In this document: positions 16,855-55,504 of the stretch, piece by piece
Layout of the letters: the number at the start of each line of letters is the position of its first letter
Position numbering within the stretch: the first letter of the stretch is position 1
Origin: a virus
Reading direction: 5' to 3' (one strand)
IMG/VR virus record: IMGVR_UViG_3300024255_000002
DNA: 64,000 nt
The notes under the pieces: generated by a model
What the model saw: only the letters and a program-made list of their open reading frames with translations
Told to the model about the DNA's origin: nothing
Database searches by the model: none
Translations under genes and position numbers: made by a program

Positions 16855-17313
16855 ATGAGATTAATATTCATAGGCATTATCATCACGTCATTACTTGGTG
16901 CTGGTGCCTATGTTTTAAAGTTGCAAAAAGATAATGTAATTTTGAAAGAGAACGCAGTTAAATTAGAGTCTGCTATTAGTGAACAAAAAACTTTAATAGA
17001 AAATCAGAAAAAAGATTTTGAAGAAATATTAGATGCTAACAATAAGATGAATAAGTTAGTTAATGTTTTGAAAAAAGATTTAGATGATTTAGATAAAAGA
17101 TTTAATAAAAAAAATAGAGACGTTGGCAAACTTGCAATTGCTAAAACAAAGTCTATTGAAAGAATAACAAATGGTGCGTCAGCACTTGCTACAAGATGTA
17201 TTGAGATCGCAAGTGGATCACCTCTAACTGAGGAAGAAAAAAATGCTACGAAGAAGTCGGAAATTAACACTGAATGTACTTCTATTGCTAATCCTAACTA
17301 TATTCCTTACTAG
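16855..17313 (+). CDS. Inner-membrane spanin (Rz-like)
   Basis: N-terminal TM plus long coiled coil; overlaps a lipoprotein gene. Confidence 0.7.
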   Translation: MRLIFIGIIITSLLGAGAYVLKLQKDNVILKENAVKLESAISEQKTLIENQKKDFEEILDANNKMNKLVNVLKKDLDDLDKRFNKKNRDVGKLAIAKTKSIERITNGASALATRCIEIASGSPLTEEEKNATKKSEINTECTSIANPNYIPY

Positions 17314-17617
17314 TTGTAGTGGAGTAAAACAGTTAAGCATATTCAAAGAAGAAGTACCAAGGGCAAAACTTAATTTAGAAAAACCCACACCATTAGAATT
17401 AGAAAACTTAAAATGGATTATTATAACATCTGAAAATGCCGAAGAAGTGTTTAAGAAGTTAGAAGAACAAGGCATTGATCCTGTATTGTGGGGTTTAACT
17501 GATAAAGACTTTGAACTATTAGCAAAAAACTTTGCTCAAATAAGAAATCAATTAAAAATTACAAATGACTTACTAGATAAGTATAAAGAATATTACGAAG
17601 AAGAAGAAGGTGCATAA
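17243..17617 (+). CDS. Outer-membrane spanin lipoprotein (Rz1-like)
   Basis: Lipobox LTSC, Pro-containing segment, start embedded in the Rz-like gene. Confidence 0.7.
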   Translation: MLRRSRKLTLNVLLLLILTIFLTSCSGVKQLSIFKEEVPRAKLNLEKPTPLELENLKWIIITSENAEEVFKKLEEQGIDPVLWGLTDKDFELLAKNFAQIRNQLKITNDLLDKYKEYYEEEEGA

Positions 17618-17898
17618 TGGAATTATTTTTTGATATATTAGTTAAGTTTGGATTACCTGTAGCAGCCGCAAGTGTTATGGGAATGTTCATCTATATAATT
17701 TTGAAATACATTTTAGGTGGTGTAGTTGGATCAGTAAAAGGATTGCACGGCATAATTATGGGTTTAGAAAATAGAGTTGAGACTATGAATAATGATCTAA
17801 TACATATTGATACATTACTTTCAGCTGCTTTACATTTAAGACCAGACTTAGATAGAATTGCCAGATCAGATGGTAAGAATGATGCTAGGAAAGATTAA
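17617..17898 (+). CDS. Small TM + coiled-coil protein (holin-like), paralog A
   Basis: FGLPVAAASVMGMFIY TM; NNDLIHI. Confidence 0.5.
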   Translation: MELFFDILVKFGLPVAAASVMGMFIYIILKYILGGVVGSVKGLHGIIMGLENRVETMNNDLIHIDTLLSAALHLRPDLDRIARSDGKNDARKD

Positions 17899-18152
17899 TG
17901 AACATATTACAAATACTTGAACAATATGGATTTGCAACTGTGGCCGCTATTGCCATGGGTTGGTTTATCTGGTTCATCTATACATACATCACACAGGAAA
18001 TTACATCTAAGTTGGCAGAGGCAAATAAGGCACTTATTGTTCTCCTAGACAAAATCAGACGACTAGATAACGATTTAATACGAATAAAGACTAAACTGAA
18101 CACAGTATTAACCCTCCGAGAAGAAGAAAAAAGAAACAAAAAGAATAGATAA
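17898..18152 (+). CDS. Small TM + coiled-coil protein (holin-like), paralog B
   Basis: YGFATVAAIAMGWFIW TM; DNDLIRI. Confidence 0.5.
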   Translation: MNILQILEQYGFATVAAIAMGWFIWFIYTYITQEITSKLAEANKALIVLLDKIRRLDNDLIRIKTKLNTVLTLREEEKRNKKNR

Positions 18153-18160
18153 TATAAATA
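18153..18160 (+). promoter_or_regulatory. Late promoter TATAAATA heading the curli-like cassette
   Basis: Exact consensus 5 nt before the csgF-like ATG. Confidence 0.7.
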
Positions 18161-18165
18161 TAAGT

Positions 18166-18654
18166 ATGAAAACATCAATGAAAAAATTGATGTTAGTAGT
18201 GGGACTTATATCATTCACATCGATTACATCAATTCTAGCATCAGAATTAGTACATAATTTTAAGAATCCTGCCTTTAGTGGTAATGGATATTCTTCACAT
18301 GTATTGTCTATCAATCAACTTGAAGCACAAAGAGAGAAACAAGTTATTGATGACAGAAAATCAGCAGAAGCAGCTGCTGAAAGAGAAGAAAAAAACAAGA
18401 CGGTAAATAAATTTATCGCCAATGTTGAAAGTAGAATTTATGCCAACTTATCAAAACAGTTAGTTGATAATATGTTTGGTGAAAGTTGTGATAGTAGTAC
18501 CACAACTTGTCCTACATCTGGTAATGCAGATATAGAAGGTGCTCAAATTTATTGGGTAAAAGATACTACAACTGAAATAATTACATTAACAATTACAGCT
18601 GATGATGGAACAGTTACAACGATGGCAGTTCCAATAGGTGATTTTCAATTTTAG
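18166..18654 (+). CDS. csgF: Curli assembly protein CsgF-like
   Basis: Signal peptide then ELVHNFKNPAFSGNG (CsgF F-x-N-P-x-F-x-G-N N-terminus); adjacent to csgG. Confidence 0.8.
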   Translation: MKTSMKKLMLVVGLISFTSITSILASELVHNFKNPAFSGNGYSSHVLSINQLEAQREKQVIDDRKSAEAAAEREEKNKTVNKFIANVESRIYANLSKQLVDNMFGESCDSSTTTCPTSGNADIEGAQIYWVKDTTTEIITLTITADDGTVTTMAVPIGDFQF

Positions 18655-18663
18655 GATATTATA

Positions 18664-19503
18664 ATGATAAAAATATTAATGACTATAGTTATGACGTTTG
18701 CCTTGATTGGATGTCAAACAACTAAAGATATTGAAATATACAAAAATAAAGGACCATCTATACAAGTATCAACTACTAAAGAAAAGTTGAAGGCATTGCC
18801 TGATTTAGATGGACAACCTATTATAACAATAGCTGTTTACAAATTTACAGACCAAACAGGTCAGAGAAAACCTAGTACAAAGTTTTCTCAACTATCAACT
18901 GCTGTCACACAAGGTGGTAGTATGTTTGTTGTGGATGCTTTAAAATCAGTTTCAGGTGGAGATTGGTTTCAAGTATTAGAGAGAGAAGGATTAGACAATC
19001 TAATCAAAGAAAGACAGTTGATTAGATCAACTAGAACAGAATATGATGGTGAACAACAGGTTGGAAATATTTTAAAACCTTTAGTGTTCGCTGGACTTCT
19101 AATGGAAGGATCCGTTGTAGGGTACGATAGTAATATACAATCGGGTGGACAAGGTGCGAGATATTTAGGTATTGGTTTAAGTGAACAGTATAGAGTAGAT
19201 CAAGTAACAGTATCTATAAGACTTGTATCAGTTCAATCAGGTGAAATATTATTAACCTCAAATGTGACTAAAACTATTGCTAGTCATTCAAAAGGTGGTG
19301 ATGTATTTACATTCTTAGATATGAATACAAAAGCAATAGAGATAGAACGTGGAGTCGCTGCTAATGAACCAGTAACATACGCAGTAAGAAGTGCTATAGA
19401 ATATGCCGTGCTAGATATAATTATGTGCGGTAAAGAAAAAGGATACTGGAAGTTTAAAGAAGAAAAAGAAAAAGGATTACACGAAAATGAAAACAATAAT
19501 TAG
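18664..19503 (+). CDS. csgG: Curli secretion channel CsgG-like lipoprotein
   Basis: Lipobox LIGC; AVYKFTDQTGQRKP, STAVTQG, WFQVLEREGLDNLIKERQLIR, GARYLGIG, QYRVDQVTV. Confidence 0.93.
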   Translation: MIKILMTIVMTFALIGCQTTKDIEIYKNKGPSIQVSTTKEKLKALPDLDGQPIITIAVYKFTDQTGQRKPSTKFSQLSTAVTQGGSMFVVDALKSVSGGDWFQVLEREGLDNLIKERQLIRSTRTEYDGEQQVGNILKPLVFAGLLMEGSVVGYDSNIQSGGQGARYLGIGLSEQYRVDQVTVSIRLVSVQSGEILLTSNVTKTIASHSKGGDVFTFLDMNTKAIEIERGVAANEPVTYAVRSAIEYAVLDIIMCGKEKGYWKFKEEKEKGLHENENNN

Positions 19504-20170
19504 TGTTATAATGTTCTTATTGATGTCAACTATGTTATGTGCTAATGACATATATGTCACTCAATCAGGTGCAAACCTTGATTTAGATATAACGCAAGAC
19601 GGATCAAACAACACAGTTGGTAACTCCACAACAGCTTCTGCTTCAAGTGGTGCAACTACTGTATTGAATATTGATCAAGTTGGTAACTCAAACGTAATTA
19701 AATATCAAATTAACGGTGCCACATACACAGGTACTATTAATTTAACAGGTAACTCAAATGATGTTGATTTAAATTGTGATAGTACAAATGGTAATAGTTC
19801 TTGTGGAACTGTAACTGCTTCTATTACAATGACAGGAAATTCAAGTGATATAGACCTAGATATAGGGGAAACTAGTGATGCTTCAAACTCAACTGTATCT
19901 ATAACTGGACAATCTGGTTCAGATTCAAACACTATAGCTGCAACAGTTGACGGAACAAGTGCTATTCTAACTTTATCAGTTAATGGTGATACAAACAACT
20001 ATTTAATTGATATTGATGGTAATGGTGATGTTAATGGTCATACATTGATACATACACACACTGGTTCAATTGCTGACGTTGATATAATACAATCAGGTGT
20101 TAATGACAATATGATCACTTTAACAACAAGTGGTGATAATGCAGATATCGATATATCGCAAACGGACTAA
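19487..20170 (+). CDS. Secreted curlin-repeat-like protein (CsgA/B-like)
   Basis: Signal peptide; repeated (I/V)xQxGxxN and GNSN beta-arc units. Confidence 0.7.
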   Translation: MKTIISVIMFLLMSTMLCANDIYVTQSGANLDLDITQDGSNNTVGNSTTASASSGATTVLNIDQVGNSNVIKYQINGATYTGTINLTGNSNDVDLNCDSTNGNSSCGTVTASITMTGNSSDIDLDIGETSDASNSTVSITGQSGSDSNTIAATVDGTSAILTLSVNGDTNNYLIDIDGNGDVNGHTLIHTHTGSIADVDIIQSGVNDNMITLTTSGDNADIDISQTD

Positions 20171-20213
20171 ATCACAATGATAACATTATTACTATTTACA
20201 GGATTAATAATAT

Positions 20214-21326
20214 ATGCGTGTTACAAGTTTTATAATTGGGTGCATACTCATAACCCTTACGACTTTAGCAACAAATAGTCTTGCTTCTATCGGTGAAGTA
20301 ACCTTACACACAGGAAATGCTGTTATCGATAGACAAGATGAATCTAAAGATATTGAGGTAAAGAAAGAGCTTGATGTTCTTTCATATGATACAGTTAAGA
20401 CAGGACAAGGTAGAGTCGGTATAGAATTTATTGACGAAACCAGAGTTGATGTCACTGAGCATAGTAAATTGTTGATTGATGATTTTGTCTATGATCCAAA
20501 TACAAAGACTGGTGCATTATCATTAAAGGCCTCTTTAGGTACAGTTAGATATGCCTCAGGTCAAATTGCAAAAAACTCAAAACAAAATGTAAAGATCAGT
20601 ACCCCCACAGCTACAATTGCTGTAAGGGGAACTGATTTTGCTATGACCATAAATGAGATAGGTGGATCCACTATTGTATTATTACCTAGTTGCAATAATG
20701 AAGGATTTTGTTATGTGGGTGAAATTGAAGTTATAACAGACGCTGGTTTTGTAATTATGAATCAAGCATTTCAAGTAACTCAAGTTGATACAATGGAATC
20801 AAAACCTTTAAAACCTGTATTGCTAGATTTAGATTTAGATATGATTAATAATTTATTGATCATAACACCTCCTAAGAAACTTGACGAGGCAATAACTGAA
20901 CAAAAAGCAAAATCAATTGCAAACGCATTAGATTTAGACTTCTTAAAGTTTGATGATTTAGAAGTAGATTTGCTAGAAATTGAAGAAGAAGAATTTACAG
21001 GACTTGATGTTGATTTTTTAGATCAGAATTTTTTAGTTGATATATTAGAACAGTTAAATAGACAACTTGCCTTACAAATGAGAAGTGAGTTTGATAAAGG
21101 TAAAGATAAAAGAAAAACAGGTAAAGATGAATTTGGTGTTATACTTCTAATAGAAGAACCTCAATGGGTGTGGATGAGAACAGACTCATCTGAAAACAAT
21201 ATAGTATTAAGACTAGACCAAGAGTATAGTTATAATATAAATGTTATACAAGGTGATACAGAAATTATAGATTATGAATTGGGTGATAGTCCAACAAATC
21301 AAATAAGAATATATCAAAATCAATAA
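20214..21326 (+). CDS. FecR-domain protein with acidic C-terminal region
   Basis: Signal peptide; DTVKTG, F.DETRV, GTVRYASG, TPTATIAVRGTDF. Confidence 0.8.
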   Translation: MRVTSFIIGCILITLTTLATNSLASIGEVTLHTGNAVIDRQDESKDIEVKKELDVLSYDTVKTGQGRVGIEFIDETRVDVTEHSKLLIDDFVYDPNTKTGALSLKASLGTVRYASGQIAKNSKQNVKISTPTATIAVRGTDFAMTINEIGGSTIVLLPSCNNEGFCYVGEIEVITDAGFVIMNQAFQVTQVDTMESKPLKPVLLDLDLDMINNLLIITPPKKLDEAITEQKAKSIANALDLDFLKFDDLEVDLLEIEEEEFTGLDVDFLDQNFLVDILEQLNRQLALQMRSEFDKGKDKRKTGKDEFGVILLIEEPQWVWMRTDSSENNIVLRLDQEYSYNINVIQGDTEIIDYELGDSPTNQIRIYQNQ

Positions 21327-22732
21327 TGTATAAATTTTTAAAAAGATTTACAATTTTTCTATTCATATGGATGATGTTTTTTTCTATCATAGATAAGTTA
21401 AAAGCCAATGATGCATTAATATATTATAGCACAGGTGGAACAAACACTAGTTCACAATACAATCATTTAAAAAGTGAACTTGAAGATTTAGGTTTTACTG
21501 TGACAGGTAGTACAAGTGGCACAGTAAGTTCAAGTTCTCTGTCAGGCAAAGAACTTGTAATTGATATTGCAGGAACTTCAAACTGTGGTAGTACATGTAA
21601 AACAAACTATGAAAGTTTTATAAGCAACGGAGGACACTTAGTTATTCTTGCACCCAACGGAGCAACCAATAGAATAGATAGCATTGAATCACTAGTTGAA
21701 AGTAAATTAAGTGTAGGAAGTATGTCAATAGTAGGTGGATGTAATACCTGTTATGGTTCAGTTGCAGTAGGAGATTATGCTTCAAGCACATCAAGTGAAA
21801 ACACATTGCCAGGACCAGACAAATTGTTTACAGCAAGTGGCGGTACATCAATGGCTAAAAACAGTACAAATAGTAGTTGGAACACTTGGTATAATTGGGA
21901 GTATGGTAGTAATGGTGGAACAATTACAGTTTCATTTGGTTATGGACAATTACTATCAACACATACCTATAGTGGTAACATGCAAGATTTTTTAGTCCGT
22001 GCAATGACAGAATCAGCATTGTATTCATCAACACCAGCCTCTGGCATAACATCAAATCAAACAACAGAATTTAATACATTTAGAAATAAATCTGTGAATG
22101 GTAATCAAATTTATATTACACAATCAGGAAATAATAATACATTAAACATAGTACAAGACGGTGACGACAACTTAATTATCGGTACAGACTTAACATCATC
22201 AGCTGTAATAAATGGCGATAATAATGCTTTAGATATAGACCAACTTGGTAATGATAATGTTTTGGGAATAGATATAGTAGGTTCTTCAAACAACGTAGCA
22301 GTTACACAAAACCAAGATCAAAGGGCAAAATTAGACTTAACAGGTTCATCAAACAATGTAGATTTAGATCAATCAGCAATTAACTATATTGGTGAGCATT
22401 ATATGTCAGTAATTATAAATGGCAATAGTAATAATGTTGATATAGATCAAACTGAAACAGGAAATAAAAAGGCATTTATAGACATAGATGGTTCTAACAA
22501 CTTGGCCTTAGATCAAAAAGGAACAGGTGATCACTATGCAGAAATAACACTAACTGATAGTCATAACGTAGATGTAACACAAGACGGAAGTGGTGATCAT
22601 AATGCAACTATTAATTTAAGTGGTAATACTTCTAGTGTAACATTGACGCAAGATAGTAGTACCTCACAGAATTATTACTTATATCAAAATTGTACTCAAT
22701 CAAGTTGCTCGGCAACTGTCACACAAAACTAA
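21326..22732 (+). CDS. Secreted protein: N-terminal alpha/beta domain + C-terminal curlin-like repeats
   Basis: IYITQSGNNN, IVQDGDDN, IDQLGNDN, LDQKGTGDH, VTQDGSGDH repeats. Confidence 0.7.
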   Translation: MYKFLKRFTIFLFIWMMFFSIIDKLKANDALIYYSTGGTNTSSQYNHLKSELEDLGFTVTGSTSGTVSSSSLSGKELVIDIAGTSNCGSTCKTNYESFISNGGHLVILAPNGATNRIDSIESLVESKLSVGSMSIVGGCNTCYGSVAVGDYASSTSSENTLPGPDKLFTASGGTSMAKNSTNSSWNTWYNWEYGSNGGTITVSFGYGQLLSTHTYSGNMQDFLVRAMTESALYSSTPASGITSNQTTEFNTFRNKSVNGNQIYITQSGNNNTLNIVQDGDDNLIIGTDLTSSAVINGDNNALDIDQLGNDNVLGIDIVGSSNNVAVTQNQDQRAKLDLTGSSNNVDLDQSAINYIGEHYMSVIINGNSNNVDIDQTETGNKKAFIDIDGSNNLALDQKGTGDHYAEITLTDSHNVDVTQDGSGDHNATINLSGNTSSVTLTQDSSTSQNYYLYQNCTQSSCSATVTQN

Positions 22733-22738
22733 ATAGTT

Positions 22739-24664
22739 ATGATGAAGAAGATATTAACTCATTGGACAATCTCATTTCTTACCTTATTCATTGTTACATA
22801 CATTGGATTAAAAGACCCTCAAATAAAAGAAGTATTAAGATTAAAAGGATTTGATCTATTAATTCAATCAGAAAAAAAAGAAATTTCAAAAGACATACAC
22901 GTTGTTAGTATAGATGAAAAGGCCATAGAGAAGTATGGACAGTGGCCTTGGAAAAGAGACGTACTAGCAGACGTAGTAAATCAATTAAGAGAAAAAGGTG
23001 CTGGTATAATAGTCATACCTATACTATTTTCAGAGTATGATAGACTAGGTGGTGATGAAACATTTATCAATACAATACATCAAAATGGTGTAGTCATAGC
23101 ACAAACAGGAACAAATCAAACAAATAGAAACGCTGTGCCAAGAGGTGTTGCAAAAATAGGTGATCCGTTACCTTGGTTATTTGAATGGAATGGTATGTTA
23201 GGTCCTGTAAAAGAATTTGGTGATTATGCAGATGGTGTGGGTGTAACAAATACGGCACCTGAAGTTGATGGAGTTGTAAGAAGAATACCTTTACTTATGA
23301 AAATAGGTGAAGATGTATATCCTGCTATGGCAATAGAAGTTATAAGAGTTTCAACAGGTGCACCAAGTTATCAAGTTAAGGCAGGTCAAGGTGGTATTAT
23401 TGCCATGAGAGTGCCTGGATATAAAACAATCAAAACAGACGCAAATGCTCGTATCTGGTTAAGATGGAACAAATCATACTACACAACATCAATTGCAGAT
23501 TTAGAAACTGAAGAATTGAGATTAGAGGGTAAAACAGTTATTATAGGAATGAATGCTGAGGGATTAGGAAATATTATTGCAACTCCTGTAGGTGAAAGAT
23601 ATGCTTATGAATTAACTGCCTCAACTCTATCAACTGTACTAGATGGTAAAAATATAGAAAGAGTTGATATATCTTTTATAGTAGAATTAGCAATTGCATT
23701 TATAGTTGGTTTGATAATTATAATACTTACAAGATACACATCATATTTTATTATTGCCTTTGCAATTATATTTTCAATTATAACTTCATTAGTATATTCT
23801 AAGTTTTTATTTAATCAAAGTTTAATGTTAACAGATGTTACATGGATTATATTTACAGTTGTAGTTGTAGGATTTCATAGTGTCTTTAATAGATTTATCT
23901 TAGAGTTTAAATTAAAACAACAAATCAGAAAACAGTTTGAGAAGTATTTGGATCCTAGACAAGTTGCTATTCTTGTAAAGAATCCTGAGAAGTTAAAACT
24001 TGGTGGTGAAAGAAAAGAAATGAGTTTCTTGTTTATGGATATTGTAGGATTTACACCTATTTCTGAACATTATAAAAACAAAGACGATCCAGAAGGATTA
24101 GTAGAAGTTATTAACGATTACTTAAATCGTATGAGTAAGATAGTATTAAAGAATGGTGGAACAATAGACAAGTATATGGGTGATTGTATTATGGCATTTT
24201 GGAACGCACCACTTGATTGTCCTGATCATGCTGAAATGGCAGTTAAGACAGGTATAGAATGTGCTAATGAAACAGATAAAATTAAAAAAGAATTTAGGGA
24301 GAGAGGTCTTCCTGATATCAATATAGGTTCTGGTGTAAATACAGGAACTTGTATTGTTGGTAATATGGGTAGTGAAATGAGATTAGATTATTCAGTTATA
24401 GGCGATGCTGTAAACTTGGCGGCTAGACTTGAAGCCGCTACAAGGAACTATAAAAATAATGGCAAGGTTACACCTTTGATTTATTCTTCATACACAAAAG
24501 AAAAACTGAAAAACATTGAGTCAATTGAATTAGATAGAATATTTGTTAAGGGTAAAGAGGAGTTAGTAACCATTTATAAACCGTCAACAAACTTAATGGA
24601 GGGTTATGACTTTACTTCAACAAAGAAAGTTACGACTAATAGTAAAAAGGATAACAAGAAATGA
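22739..24664 (+). CDS. CHASE2-domain membrane class III adenylate cyclase
   Basis: IDEKAIEKYGQWPWKR, EVDGVVRRIPL (CHASE2); 3 TMs; FMDIVGFT, IDKYMGDCIMAFW, YSVIGDAVNLAARLE. Confidence 0.93.
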   Translation: MMKKILTHWTISFLTLFIVTYIGLKDPQIKEVLRLKGFDLLIQSEKKEISKDIHVVSIDEKAIEKYGQWPWKRDVLADVVNQLREKGAGIIVIPILFSEYDRLGGDETFINTIHQNGVVIAQTGTNQTNRNAVPRGVAKIGDPLPWLFEWNGMLGPVKEFGDYADGVGVTNTAPEVDGVVRRIPLLMKIGEDVYPAMAIEVIRVSTGAPSYQVKAGQGGIIAMRVPGYKTIKTDANARIWLRWNKSYYTTSIADLETEELRLEGKTVIIGMNAEGLGNIIATPVGERYAYELTASTLSTVLDGKNIERVDISFIVELAIAFIVGLIIIILTRYTSYFIIAFAIIFSIITSLVYSKFLFNQSLMLTDVTWIIFTVVVVGFHSVFNRFILEFKLKQQIRKQFEKYLDPRQVAILVKNPEKLKLGGERKEMSFLFMDIVGFTPISEHYKNKDDPEGLVEVINDYLNRMSKIVLKNGGTIDKYMGDCIMAFWNAPLDCPDHAEMAVKTGIECANETDKIKKEFRERGLPDINIGSGVNTGTCIVGNMGSEMRLDYSVIGDAVNLAARLEAATRNYKNNGKVTPLIYSSYTKEKLKNIESIELDRIFVKGKEELVTIYKPSTNLMEGYDFTSTKKVTTNSKKDNKK

Positions 24665-24806
24665 AAAACAAAGAAAACTATACTTACTCAATACACACTG
24701 GCTCAAAATTAGGAAACAAAAGTTACGGAGACGCCGAAAAACATTTGTGAAACTTTGGAAAATTAATCGATTAAGAGAAATAAGAAGCATGGCTAAAGCC
24801 GCATAA
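24606..24806 (+). CDS. Small highly basic protein
   Basis: GGAGG SD upstream; Lys/Arg-rich 66 aa. Confidence 0.5.
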   Translation: MTLLQQRKLRLIVKRITRNEKQRKLYLLNTHWLKIRKQKLRRRRKTFVKLWKINRLREIRSMAKAA

Positions 24807-24820
24807 TAATAAATAGTAAC

Positions 24821-25285
24821 ATGGCAGAATTAACAGAAATACAAAAATTAGTAACAGACGTTCGAGTTCTAAAGAATGAAGTTGAGCAAGTTTCTAATGT
24901 TAATACAAAACTTGATAGTGCTATTGACAAGTTGACAGATATATCTAGCAGTATCAAGTCCATGTTAGCTGTCCATGAAGAAAAACTATCAAAACAAGAA
25001 GATATTGATAAAGCAATATTTAATCTAATGGAGAGTCGTAGAGTTGAGAGCGAATCGAAATTTGAAGACTTACATGCCAGACTTAATAAATCTGTTAAAG
25101 AATTAAGAGACGATGTCGAATTATCAGAAAAACGTATTTTATGTGACTTAAAAGAATTAAAATTGAATTTATCTGATAGAGTAGGTGTCCTTGAAAAATA
25201 TCGTTGGATAATCATTGGGGCATCTATCATTTTAGGACTATGGTTTCCACAAATGGTAGACTTTACTAAAATAATTAAGATATAG
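24821..25285 (+). CDS. Coiled-coil protein with C-terminal TM
   Basis: Heptad repeats; LAVHEEKL; C-terminal hydrophobic helix. Confidence 0.65.
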   Translation: MAELTEIQKLVTDVRVLKNEVEQVSNVNTKLDSAIDKLTDISSSIKSMLAVHEEKLSKQEDIDKAIFNLMESRRVESESKFEDLHARLNKSVKELRDDVELSEKRILCDLKELKLNLSDRVGVLEKYRWIIIGASIILGLWFPQMVDFTKIIKI

Positions 25286-25289
25286 GTGC

Positions 25290-25318
25290 TTGACTTTTTT
25301 GATGTTTTGATATATAAT
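25290..25318 (+). promoter_or_regulatory. sigma70 promoter TTGACT-17-TATAAT (primase)
   Basis: Near-consensus, 7 nt before the ATG. Confidence 0.8.
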
Positions 25319-25325
25319 ACTATCA

Positions 25326-26339
25326 ATGACTTCATACATCGATCTTAACTATATTAGTAAACTACAACCTAGACTACAACAGTTTAAAAAGAAACGAGAC
25401 TATCTTTTTAATTTTCGTTGTCCAGTCTGTGGTGATTCTAAAAAGAATAAAACAAAAGCAAGAGCATACTTGTACAAAGTAAAAACAGATATGTTCTTTA
25501 AGTGTCATAATTGTGGGGCAGGACATAATTTGGCAAACTTAATAAAATTATTAGATAAACCTTTATACGATCAGTATGTAGTTGAACGATATAAAGGATC
25601 TAAACCTGTTAGTGAAAAAAGTTTACTTGATAAATTTAAAACTAACACAAAAGAAAGATTACAAACTTCACCTCTACAAGGGCTTACGCCTATAAAAGAA
25701 TTAGATAATGAACATCCTGCTAAGAAATATGTTACAAACAGGAAGATTTCTGAACAGTTTTTTGATAAATTATATTACTGTAAAAAGTTCCAAGATTATG
25801 TAAATAAGTTACGCCCAGAAACTTTTAGCAGTATAAATAAATCTTACGAACATCCTAGATTAATCATTCCTTTCTATGATGTTGATAATGAAGTCTTTGC
25901 CATACAAGGCAGAGCATTTGGTAAAGAACAACCTAAGTACTTAACAATTAAACTAAAAGAAAATAAACAAAAGATATTTGGACTTGAAAGAATAAATCTA
26001 CATAGAAGATTATATATAGTAGAGGGTCCTTTAGATAGTTTGTTTTTAGATAATTGCCTTGCCGCTGCTGGTGCAGATTTACAATTGCCAGTAGAAAAGA
26101 AAGATGTTGTTTTTATCTTTGATAATGAACCTAGAAATAAACAGATTATAGATAGAATGTATAAGATGATTGAAAAAGATTATATGATAGTAATATGGCC
26201 CGAAGGACAAAAAGAGAAAGATATTAACGATATGATAATAAACGGCAAGACAAAAGAAGAAGTACAGAAAATTATTTCAGATAATACCTATTCAGGTTTA
26301 TCCGCACTAACACAATTAAATTCATTCAAGCGTTGCTAA
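25326..26339 (+). CDS. 61: DNA primase gp61
   Basis: Zn finger CPVCGDS...CHNC; TOPRIM VEGPLDS, FDNEPRN, KDINDM. Confidence 0.95.
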   Translation: MTSYIDLNYISKLQPRLQQFKKKRDYLFNFRCPVCGDSKKNKTKARAYLYKVKTDMFFKCHNCGAGHNLANLIKLLDKPLYDQYVVERYKGSKPVSEKSLLDKFKTNTKERLQTSPLQGLTPIKELDNEHPAKKYVTNRKISEQFFDKLYYCKKFQDYVNKLRPETFSSINKSYEHPRLIIPFYDVDNEVFAIQGRAFGKEQPKYLTIKLKENKQKIFGLERINLHRRLYIVEGPLDSLFLDNCLAAAGADLQLPVEKKDVVFIFDNEPRNKQIIDRMYKMIEKDYMIVIWPEGQKEKDINDMIINGKTKEEVQKIISDNTYSGLSALTQLNSFKRC

Positions 26340-55496: not shown

Positions 55497-55504
55497 TATA
55501 AATA
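55497..55504 (+). promoter_or_regulatory. Late promoter TATAAATA (gp2)
   Basis: Exact consensus between divergent gp4 and gp2. Confidence 0.7.

Follow-up and report, generated by a model that had tools for sequence, protein, structure and literature searches.

A pelagimyophage cassette combining a curli-type secretion pore with a FecR-domain protein and a CHASE2 adenylate cyclase

Gene content of the locus

We analysed a stretch of 64,000 nucleotides of viral DNA (IMG/VR record IMGVR_UViG_3300024255_000002, hereafter the window) and, within it, a cassette that combines the pore of a curli-type, or type VIII, secretion system (T8SS) with a FecR-domain protein and a receptor adenylate cyclase carrying a CHASE2 domain. 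The window belongs to a T4-like pelagimyophage: its large open reading frames (ORFs) lie without exception on the + strand and include members of PHROG families for replication, ribonucleotide reductase, tail and virion. The isolates closest to it are Pelagibacter phage HTVC008M and Methylophilales phage Melnitz. Both share the gene set and gene order of the cassette, with nucleotide identities over it of 72.7% and 68%, respectively.

Six co-directional, tightly packed ORFs occupy positions 18166-24664, with junctions of -17 to +43 nt (Table 1). An earlier note, made from the sequence alone, had named them csgF, csgG, a curlin gene, a FecR-domain gene, a second curlin gene and a cyclase gene, and all six identities were confirmed by Pfam and homology searches. 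The cassette is real and strongly conserved. It is best described as a module of eight genes, namely tmA, tmB, csgF, csgG, curlin 1 (cur1), the fecR-domain gene, curlin 2 (cur2) and the CHASE2 adenylate cyclase, because tmA and tmB travel with the cassette while the spanin-like pair upstream of them does not.

Table 1. Positions of the cassette genes and adjoining features in the window (aa, amino acids; TM, transmembrane)
Feature	Position	Strand	Description	Evidence
Spanin pair	16855-17313 and 17243-17617	+	Overlapping Rz-like spanin pair	phrog_739, E 2.6e-8; phrog_812, E 2.5e-7
tmA	17617-17898	+	93 aa; one N-terminal membrane helix, coiled-coil-like C-terminal tail	phrog_18771, E 5.8e-33
tmB	17898-18152	+	84-aa paralogue of tmA	phrog_18771, E 7.6e-31
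TATAAATA	18153-18160	+	T4-type late-promoter-like motif	5 nt before the csgF ATG
csgF	18166-18654	+	CsgF-like secreted protein, T8SS pore accessory	Pfam CsgF, E 6.9e-13
csgG	18664-19503	+	CsgG outer-membrane lipoprotein, T8SS channel	Pfam CsgG, E 3.7e-53
cur1	19487-20170	+	227-aa secreted protein with degenerate curlin-type repeats	Paralogy to cur2
fecR-domain gene	20214-21326	+	Secreted FecR-domain protein	Pfam FecR (PF04773), E 3.8e-10, sole Pfam domain
cur2	21326-22732	+	468 aa; signal/anchor sequence, N-terminal passenger and repeats	Pfam Curlin_rpt, E 2.5e-7
CHASE2 cyclase gene	22739-24664	+	Receptor adenylate cyclase: TM1, periplasmic CHASE2, three TM helices, class III catalytic domain	Pfam

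Such clusters have been described before. A curli cluster in pelagimyophages was reported by Zaragoza-Solas et al. 2020 (PMC7029224), and that of Melnitz was discussed by Buchholz et al. 2022 (PMC9004378), who suggested that it acts in the timing of lysis. Wittmers et al. 2022 (PMC9599517) listed CsgF, CsgG, CsgA/B, FecR, a second CsgA/B and an adenylate cyclase in pelagiphages; the set was found in podophages (HTVC023P-type) and, on re-examination, in myophages including HTVC008M, and the cassette occurred at every GOV2.0 station examined, with transcripts in ocean metatranscriptomes. In GenBank records, the HTVC008M cyclase and the Melnitz FecR protein are already annotated as such. The composition of the cassette is therefore already known and its presence here is not new; the remark in the earlier note that no description of the whole unit was known does not hold in view of the 2022 publication. 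Nothing essential in gene content differs from that account (PMC9599517), in which FecR is called an iron regulator and CHASE2 is missing from the main text. The podophages described there have a ‘histidine kinase’ ahead of csgF, whereas the window has membrane proteins of 84 and 93 aa without a kinase domain. No later experimental work on the pelagiphage cassette was found in the literature searched.

The secretion pore and the curlin-repeat proteins

The phage CsgG is a full-length homologue of the E. coli CsgG structures (E 1.2e-47, residues 7-270), and its translation shows the lipobox LIGC. CsgF has a signal-peptide-like N-terminus and a FKNPAFSGN motif in its translation; no relative of it was found by sequence among the solved CsgF chains. 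At about residues 68-80 of CsgG, a HMMER alignment sets S, Q and L against the Y, N and F of the E. coli protein, which we take to be its pore-constriction residues, and the phage protein has one residue extra. Judging from this alignment, the constriction of the phage pore may differ from that of E. coli.

No match to CsgE, CsgC or CsgD was obtained among the ten ORFs scanned (17617-26339). These three genes are not universal outside Gammaproteobacteria, and their absence from pelagiphage clusters was likewise noted by Wittmers et al. 2022 (PMC9599517). Compared with the curli system of E. coli (CsgBAC/CsgDEFG), the cassette shares the full-length CsgG homologue, CsgF and the curlin-repeat subunits; it differs in having no CsgE, CsgC or CsgD, in carrying a passenger domain on one of the curlins, and in the embedded FecR and cyclase genes.

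In the structure model of the cur2 product, the curlin repeats (about residues 260-468) form a beta-solenoid at residues 265-468, for which a fold search returned generic beta-helix matches only (Z 12-16) and no specific match to CsgA. Ahead of the repeats lies an alpha/beta domain of about residues 28-250 (positions 21326-22105 of the window encode residues 1-260). This domain is variable: it was found in 10 of the 51 viral loci in which it could be evaluated (see below for the sample), and its copies are 28-93% identical. Its model is of low confidence (predicted local distance difference test, pLDDT, about 45-74) and too poor for classification. Two conserved pairs of Cys point to a disulfide-bonded passenger outside the cytoplasm, and residues 47-107 resemble a stretch of the RTX adhesin of a sister variant described below (36% identity, E 4e-6). 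The cur1 product has a Pfam match of its own that stays under threshold (Curlin_rpt, E 0.066). It aligns to the repeat region of cur2 (31% identity, E 5e-14), and its counterparts in HTVC008M and Melnitz are annotated as curlin-associated.

The FecR-domain protein

The cassette is widespread: for the FecR family by itself, clustering of public sequences at 90% identity gives over 7,900 clusters. The phage member begins with a signal peptide, is without a membrane anchor and was modelled with a mean pLDDT of 78.7 as a beta domain (residues 27-205), an acidic disordered linker (about 215-300) and a small C-terminal beta domain (300-370). In a structure search, residues 56-217 matched the C-terminal cell-surface signalling domain of PupR (6ovk, chain R; Z 14.8, rmsd 2.7, 134 residues) and a Parabacteroides anti-sigma factor (4m0n; Z 13.9). 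The stretch 23-119 is similar to the domain by which the MpIBP adhesin is anchored to the cell surface (5ix9; Z 11.0, 24% identity), and 5ix9 is also picked up by a sequence profile (E 0.002). G139-T140 is invariant among 32 homologues and aligns with G181-T182 of E. coli FecR, the self-cleavage site of that protein (PMC8144685); the phage protein has kept the GT self-cleavage motif.

The likeness to E. coli FecR is partial. In Pfam, the E. coli protein consists of DUF4880 (its anti-sigma part), FecR and FecR_C, whereas in the phage protein neither Pfam nor the translation shows an anti-sigma domain, a FecR_C or a membrane helix. It is a FecR-domain protein and not a FecR-type regulator. The FecR-domain fold and the GT motif are shared with the FecA-FecR-FecI system, whose logic is that of an outer-membrane protein signalling across the periplasm; in the cassette, a CHASE2 cyclase replaces the cytoplasmic output. 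With RTX adhesins of the LapA/MpIBP type, the phage protein shares the resemblance of its N-terminal half to the anchoring domain, and the adhesin of the sister variant likewise bears a FecR domain at its N-terminus. Here, by contrast, the domain is free and Sec-secreted, the exporter is a T8SS, and a protease or receptor of the LapG/LapD type was not seen.

Wittmers et al. (PMC9599517) read the cassette as an iron-responsive, CsgD-like control of curli, in which FecR acts as a ferric-citrate-type regulator and cyclic AMP (cAMP) drives curli transcription. This proposal draws on the domain names only, and it sits poorly with a protein that has the FecR domain alone where E. coli has DUF4880, FecR and FecR_C. 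Nothing resembling FecI or FecA (a sigma factor or a TonB-dependent transducer) was found in the cassette, 17617-24664, which is the range that was scanned, the rest of the window not having been scanned for them. Moreover, the sampled hosts are mostly without a cNMP-binding regulator (see below) and the FecR domain has CHASE2 as its partner, a pairing common to many bacteria. We hold iron regulation to be very improbable.

The CHASE2 adenylate cyclase

In the cyclase, Pfam places CHASE2 at residues 21-324 (E 3.9e-41) and Guanylate_cyc at residues 426-611 (E 1.4e-18), with hydrophobic segments at residues about 9-24 and about 311-395. The catalytic domain is similar to class III adenylate cyclases of solved structure (E 8e-35), and in an alignment of phage cyclases the residues D434, K478, D482, S552, N559 and R563 are all present, so that the set is intact. 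Following the class III literature, we take D434 and D482 to bind metal, K478 and S552 to act on the substrate, and N559 and R563 on the transition state; S552 would make the enzyme class IIIb-like.

Two types of catalytic domain occur among the phage CHASE2 cyclases, and they have been exchanged between lineages. The type found in Melnitz (e.g. L002:8515-10329) has an Asp at the purine-specifying position and a Ser where N559 sits here. A Ser in place of the transition-state Asn may mean an altered or reduced activity.

Linkage across viral loci

Viral loci were fetched by similarity to the FecR protein (80 loci, 42-100% identity) and all cassette proteins were mapped on them. Of 158 matches these 80 scored best, and the sample leans to relatives of the window. 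Genes upstream of FecR were evaluated on the 63 loci with at least 3.5 kb of sequence on that side, and those downstream on the 51 loci with at least 4.5 kb.

The linkage is near-obligatory in these loci. csgG, csgF and cur1 are present in 63/63, tmA and tmB each in 62/63, and the CHASE2-cyclase in 51/51, within 2.5 kb in 45 of them; it is inverted or displaced in 6. The second curlin was found in 45 of the 51, and in nearly all loci the two curlin genes flank that of FecR. The earlier note had allowed that FecR and cyclase genes might usually be unlinked from csgFG in relatives; the two sets of counts, 63/63 for FecR with csgFG and 51/51 for the cyclase, run the other way.

Bacterial relatives of the two halves

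A FecR profile was compared with one genome per prokaryotic species and the cassette proteins were mapped on the matches. Among 69 bacterial loci chosen by FecR similarity, at least 22 have a CHASE2 protein within 10 kb of FecR. A FecR domain beside a CHASE2-cyclase occurs in Myxococcota, Planctomycetia, Spirochaetales, Geobacter, Elusimicrobia, Omnitrophota and several Alphaproteobacteria. This bears out the claim of the earlier note that CHASE2 sensors adjoin FecR partners in bacteria, and agrees with published cases in which a FecR gene adjoins a CHASE2 sensor: the LysM-FecR/CHASE2 kinase operon of Burkholderia (PMC5192318), the cluster of Campylobacterota (PMC9239204) and cyaD1-smc02177 of S. 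meliloti (PMC5498481).

The bacterial pairs share with the phage a secreted FecR-domain protein and a sensor made of an N-terminal TM helix, CHASE2 and three further TM helices, often with a class III cyclase output. They differ in that csgFG was never seen beside them in the bacterial loci surveyed and in that some have other envelope partners. One such partner, in a Planctomycetia locus (L155), is a TPR protein with a weak match to the outer-membrane family SlipAM. It is followed, in this order, by FecR, a CHASE2-cyclase, a DUF6901 protein and a metallo-beta-lactamase-fold protein, and the cluster resembles the published CHASE2 cyclase cluster of Campylobacterota (PMC9239204). Another is a DUF2860-like protein in SAR11.

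The pore half was found equally separate. Within about 10 kb of the seven closest alphaproteobacterial csgG loci (40-50% identity) there is no FecR, CHASE2 or cyclase gene. CsgG itself occurs in 2/41 Pelagibacteraceae genomes, one of these being a phage-like contig with the whole cassette. Since the FecR-CHASE2 loci are without csgFG and the csgG loci without FecR or CHASE2, the phage cassette joins two modules of bacterial origin that are found apart in every bacterial locus searched; the combination of pore and FecR/CHASE2 was seen only on phage-like contigs.

A bacterial origin of the cassette as a whole was considered and set aside. The loci that could have spoken for it (the ten best ‘bacterial’ matches, L083-L092, and L188 on G012:C1) carry the full phage-type set including tmA/tmB, and were left out of the bacterial counts. 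In all probability they are phage DNA that was binned with metagenome-assembled genomes (MAGs) or single-cell genomes, and such mis-binned contigs would inflate the ‘bacterial’ counts of cassette genes. The taxon labels of their bins include Pelagibacter, Flavobacteriaceae, Pirellulales, Rhodobacteraceae, Legionellales and Luteolibacter.

CHASE2 occurs in 8/41 Pelagibacteraceae genomes. Several SAR11 single-cell genomes (L132:6638-11611; L133, L138, L139, L147, L149, L151, L156) have a CHASE2 protein of their own, a CHASE2-PP2C (SpoIIE) phosphatase. Beside it lie the DUF2860-like protein mentioned above and a 191-aa FecR protein, with a GAF-PP2C gene on the opposite strand.

A sister module with a type I exporter

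A sister module without csgFG was found on a MAG contig (L093, 5210-15365) and on viral contigs of up to 172 kb (L183, L185, L186); the matching viral loci L184 and L187 end inside the adhesin gene. Its genes encode, in order, a FecR-adhesin, a TolC-like protein, a 248-aa multi-helix membrane protein, an HlyD-like protein and the CHASE2-cyclase, followed in three of the four loci by tmA/tmB. The adhesin (1,317-1,471 aa, no signal peptide) begins with a FecR domain, continues with a long acidic coiled coil and cadherin domains, and has RTX repeats at its C-terminus. The flanks match phage thymidylate synthase and exonuclease PHROGs, and a viral origin of the module is likely. No description of it was found in the literature searched.

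Since this variant has TolC/HlyD components of a type I secretion system (T1SS) and an RTX adhesin in place of the T8SS, exporter and fibre can be exchanged with the FecR domain, the CHASE2-cyclase and tmA/tmB being retained. Such a module fits an arrangement that runs from an outer-membrane pore through FecR to CHASE2.

The same data bear on whether the two halves work together at all. They could be two independent functions that are merely co-inherited: curli fibres that alter the surface of the infected cell, serving aggregation (‘sibling capture’), receptor masking or superinfection exclusion, and a separate FecR-CHASE2 cAMP sensor of some periplasmic or environmental cue, with pore and sensor physically uncoupled. 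The separate occurrence of the halves in bacteria (the seven csgG loci on one side, FecR-CHASE2 loci without csgFG on the other) is what this explanation would predict, the cyclase is inverted or displaced in 6/51 viral loci, and fibre roles have been proposed (PMC7029224, PMC9599517). It does not readily account for a FecR gene placed between the curlin genes in nearly all loci, for the cyclase linkage of 51/51, or for the T1SS variant, where the FecR domain is fused to the secreted adhesin beside the same cyclase. On balance we find independent functions doubtful, though a serious alternative.

A proposed trans-envelope relay

SAR11 is the most abundant bacterial group of the ocean. In an infected SAR11 cell, CsgG and CsgF would build an outer-membrane channel through which both beta-solenoid curlins, one of them bearing the alpha/beta passenger, would leave to the cell surface. 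The secreted FecR-domain protein would remain in the periplasm, at or beneath the CsgG channel, and would pair with the periplasmic CHASE2 of the cyclase, by analogy to the bacterial FecR-CHASE2 gene pairs. In this way cytoplasmic cAMP synthesis would be set by the condition of the export channel or the fibres, and self-cleavage at the FecR-type GT motif together with a proteolysis step may carry the signal. Such a relay, of the kind put forward in the earlier note, is the mechanism best supported by gene neighbourhoods, folds and one natural module swap, from which we infer the export of the curlins, the docking of FecR to pore and CHASE2, the direction of the signal and all cAMP effects downstream. 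We give it an even chance of being correct.

Several observations weigh against the relay. The first curlin is a weak match to the curlin repeat, and neither clumping nor fibres were seen with Melnitz (Buchholz et al., PMC9004378). The FecR-domain gene beside cyaD1 of S. meliloti is dispensable for signal perception (PMC5498481). A co-variation that would speak for the relay, in which the identity of FecR to the copy in the window tracks that of tmA, cur1, CsgG, CsgF and CHASE2 (Spearman 0.68-0.84) and does not track that of the cyclase catalytic domain (Spearman 0.12), is descriptive only, as it is confounded by the shared ancestry of neighbouring genes.

The read-out of cAMP is a further difficulty. 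A cNMP_binding domain was found in only 2/41 Pelagibacteraceae genomes and in 0/5 large phage records (HTVC008M, Melnitz and three large viral contigs), nor was one found in the nearest viral record (37% complete); class III cyclases, too, occur in 2/41 Pelagibacteraceae genomes, all of these counts being samples and not proofs of absence. Because cNMP_binding is nearly missing in the sampled hosts and phages, the cAMP made by the cyclase has no evident reader in either, and a simple ‘cAMP to CRP’ route is without support. The idea of the earlier note that cAMP could report on neighbours, superinfection or aggregation thus lacks a visible receptor.

A wider and more specific version of the relay can be formulated. 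The two modules would represent a modular class of phage-borne trans-envelope signalling systems, in which a T8SS or T1SS exporter is wired via a FecR-type GT domain to a CHASE2 cyclase and tmA/tmB. In the curli version, FecR would replace CsgE as the cap or plug of CsgG, and its displacement or cleavage on fibre export or engagement would switch on cAMP synthesis. tmA/tmB are the candidate read-out; a phage-encoded read-out is invoked because the host lineage is almost without cyclases or cNMP-binding receptors. We consider this version as a whole unlikely.

The cassette equips infected cells with an outer-membrane secretion system and a cAMP-producing receptor, which are missing from most of the sampled hosts. 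What it does in them bears on how cells aggregate, on superinfection and on the export of carbon. To the published picture we add FecR as a partner of CHASE2 with a GT motif, the T1SS swap, tmA and tmB as fixed members, and the want of a visible cAMP receptor. Together they give a testable hypothesis a sharper form and set right the label ‘iron regulator’.

tmA, tmB and the neighbouring spanin genes

tmA and tmB match phrog_18771, a viral-only family of unknown function. Neither protein has a Pfam match at E<=1, a kinase domain or a match to a holin family. A lead towards YvrJ for tmA (0.89, Atlas search) fell below the reliable range and was rejected; the other neighbours in that search were unnamed viral clusters. 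Their position is flexible: tmA sits between csgF and csgG in five viral loci (L014, L016, L017, L022, L040), and in some the tmA/tmB pair is inverted yet still close to the cassette. The label ‘holin-like’ that the earlier note had given to these two ORFs is better replaced by that of cassette members. The spanin pair is, in turn, a neighbour that lies outside the module: it adjoins the cassette only in the closest relatives and is absent from that place in HTVC008M and Melnitz. Of the statement that the cassette directly follows spanin/holin-like genes, the spanin part is upheld by the PHROG matches, while the adjacency is not conserved and no holin family was matched.

These genes are central to the possibility that the cassette is a lysis-timing device, as put forward in PMC9004378 and echoed in the earlier note. 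CsgG/CsgF would then form a gated, secretin- or pinholin-like pore, tmA/tmB would act in the manner of holin and antiholin, and the cyclase would tune the moment of lysis. Besides the spanin pair directly upstream in this phage, the late-promoter motif is present, and tmA and tmB, small membrane proteins with a single helix, are constant companions of the cyclase. Yet the spanin adjacency on which the idea leans is not shared by HTVC008M or Melnitz, an outer-membrane pore cannot depolarise the inner membrane, tmA/tmB match no holin family, and the curlin-repeat substrates are kept in 63/63 loci. A lysis-timing role seems to us quite improbable.

The late-promoter-like motif

The motif TATAAATA recurs at identical spacing before csgF in HTVC008M and is not present at that spacing in Melnitz. 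It is not enriched in the window (11 observed against 13.5 expected). The ‘exact late promoter’ reported before csgF is thus in place as a motif, with a count that does not rise above chance; because of that count, the case for a late promoter is positional and not statistical. The cassette genes are not preceded by any evident Shine-Dalgarno sequence. A second copy of TATAAATA, at 55497-55504, also stands exactly 5 nt ahead of an ATG (55510). If these motifs are T4-type late promoters, transcripts would start at or beside the start codon and the mRNAs could be leaderless.

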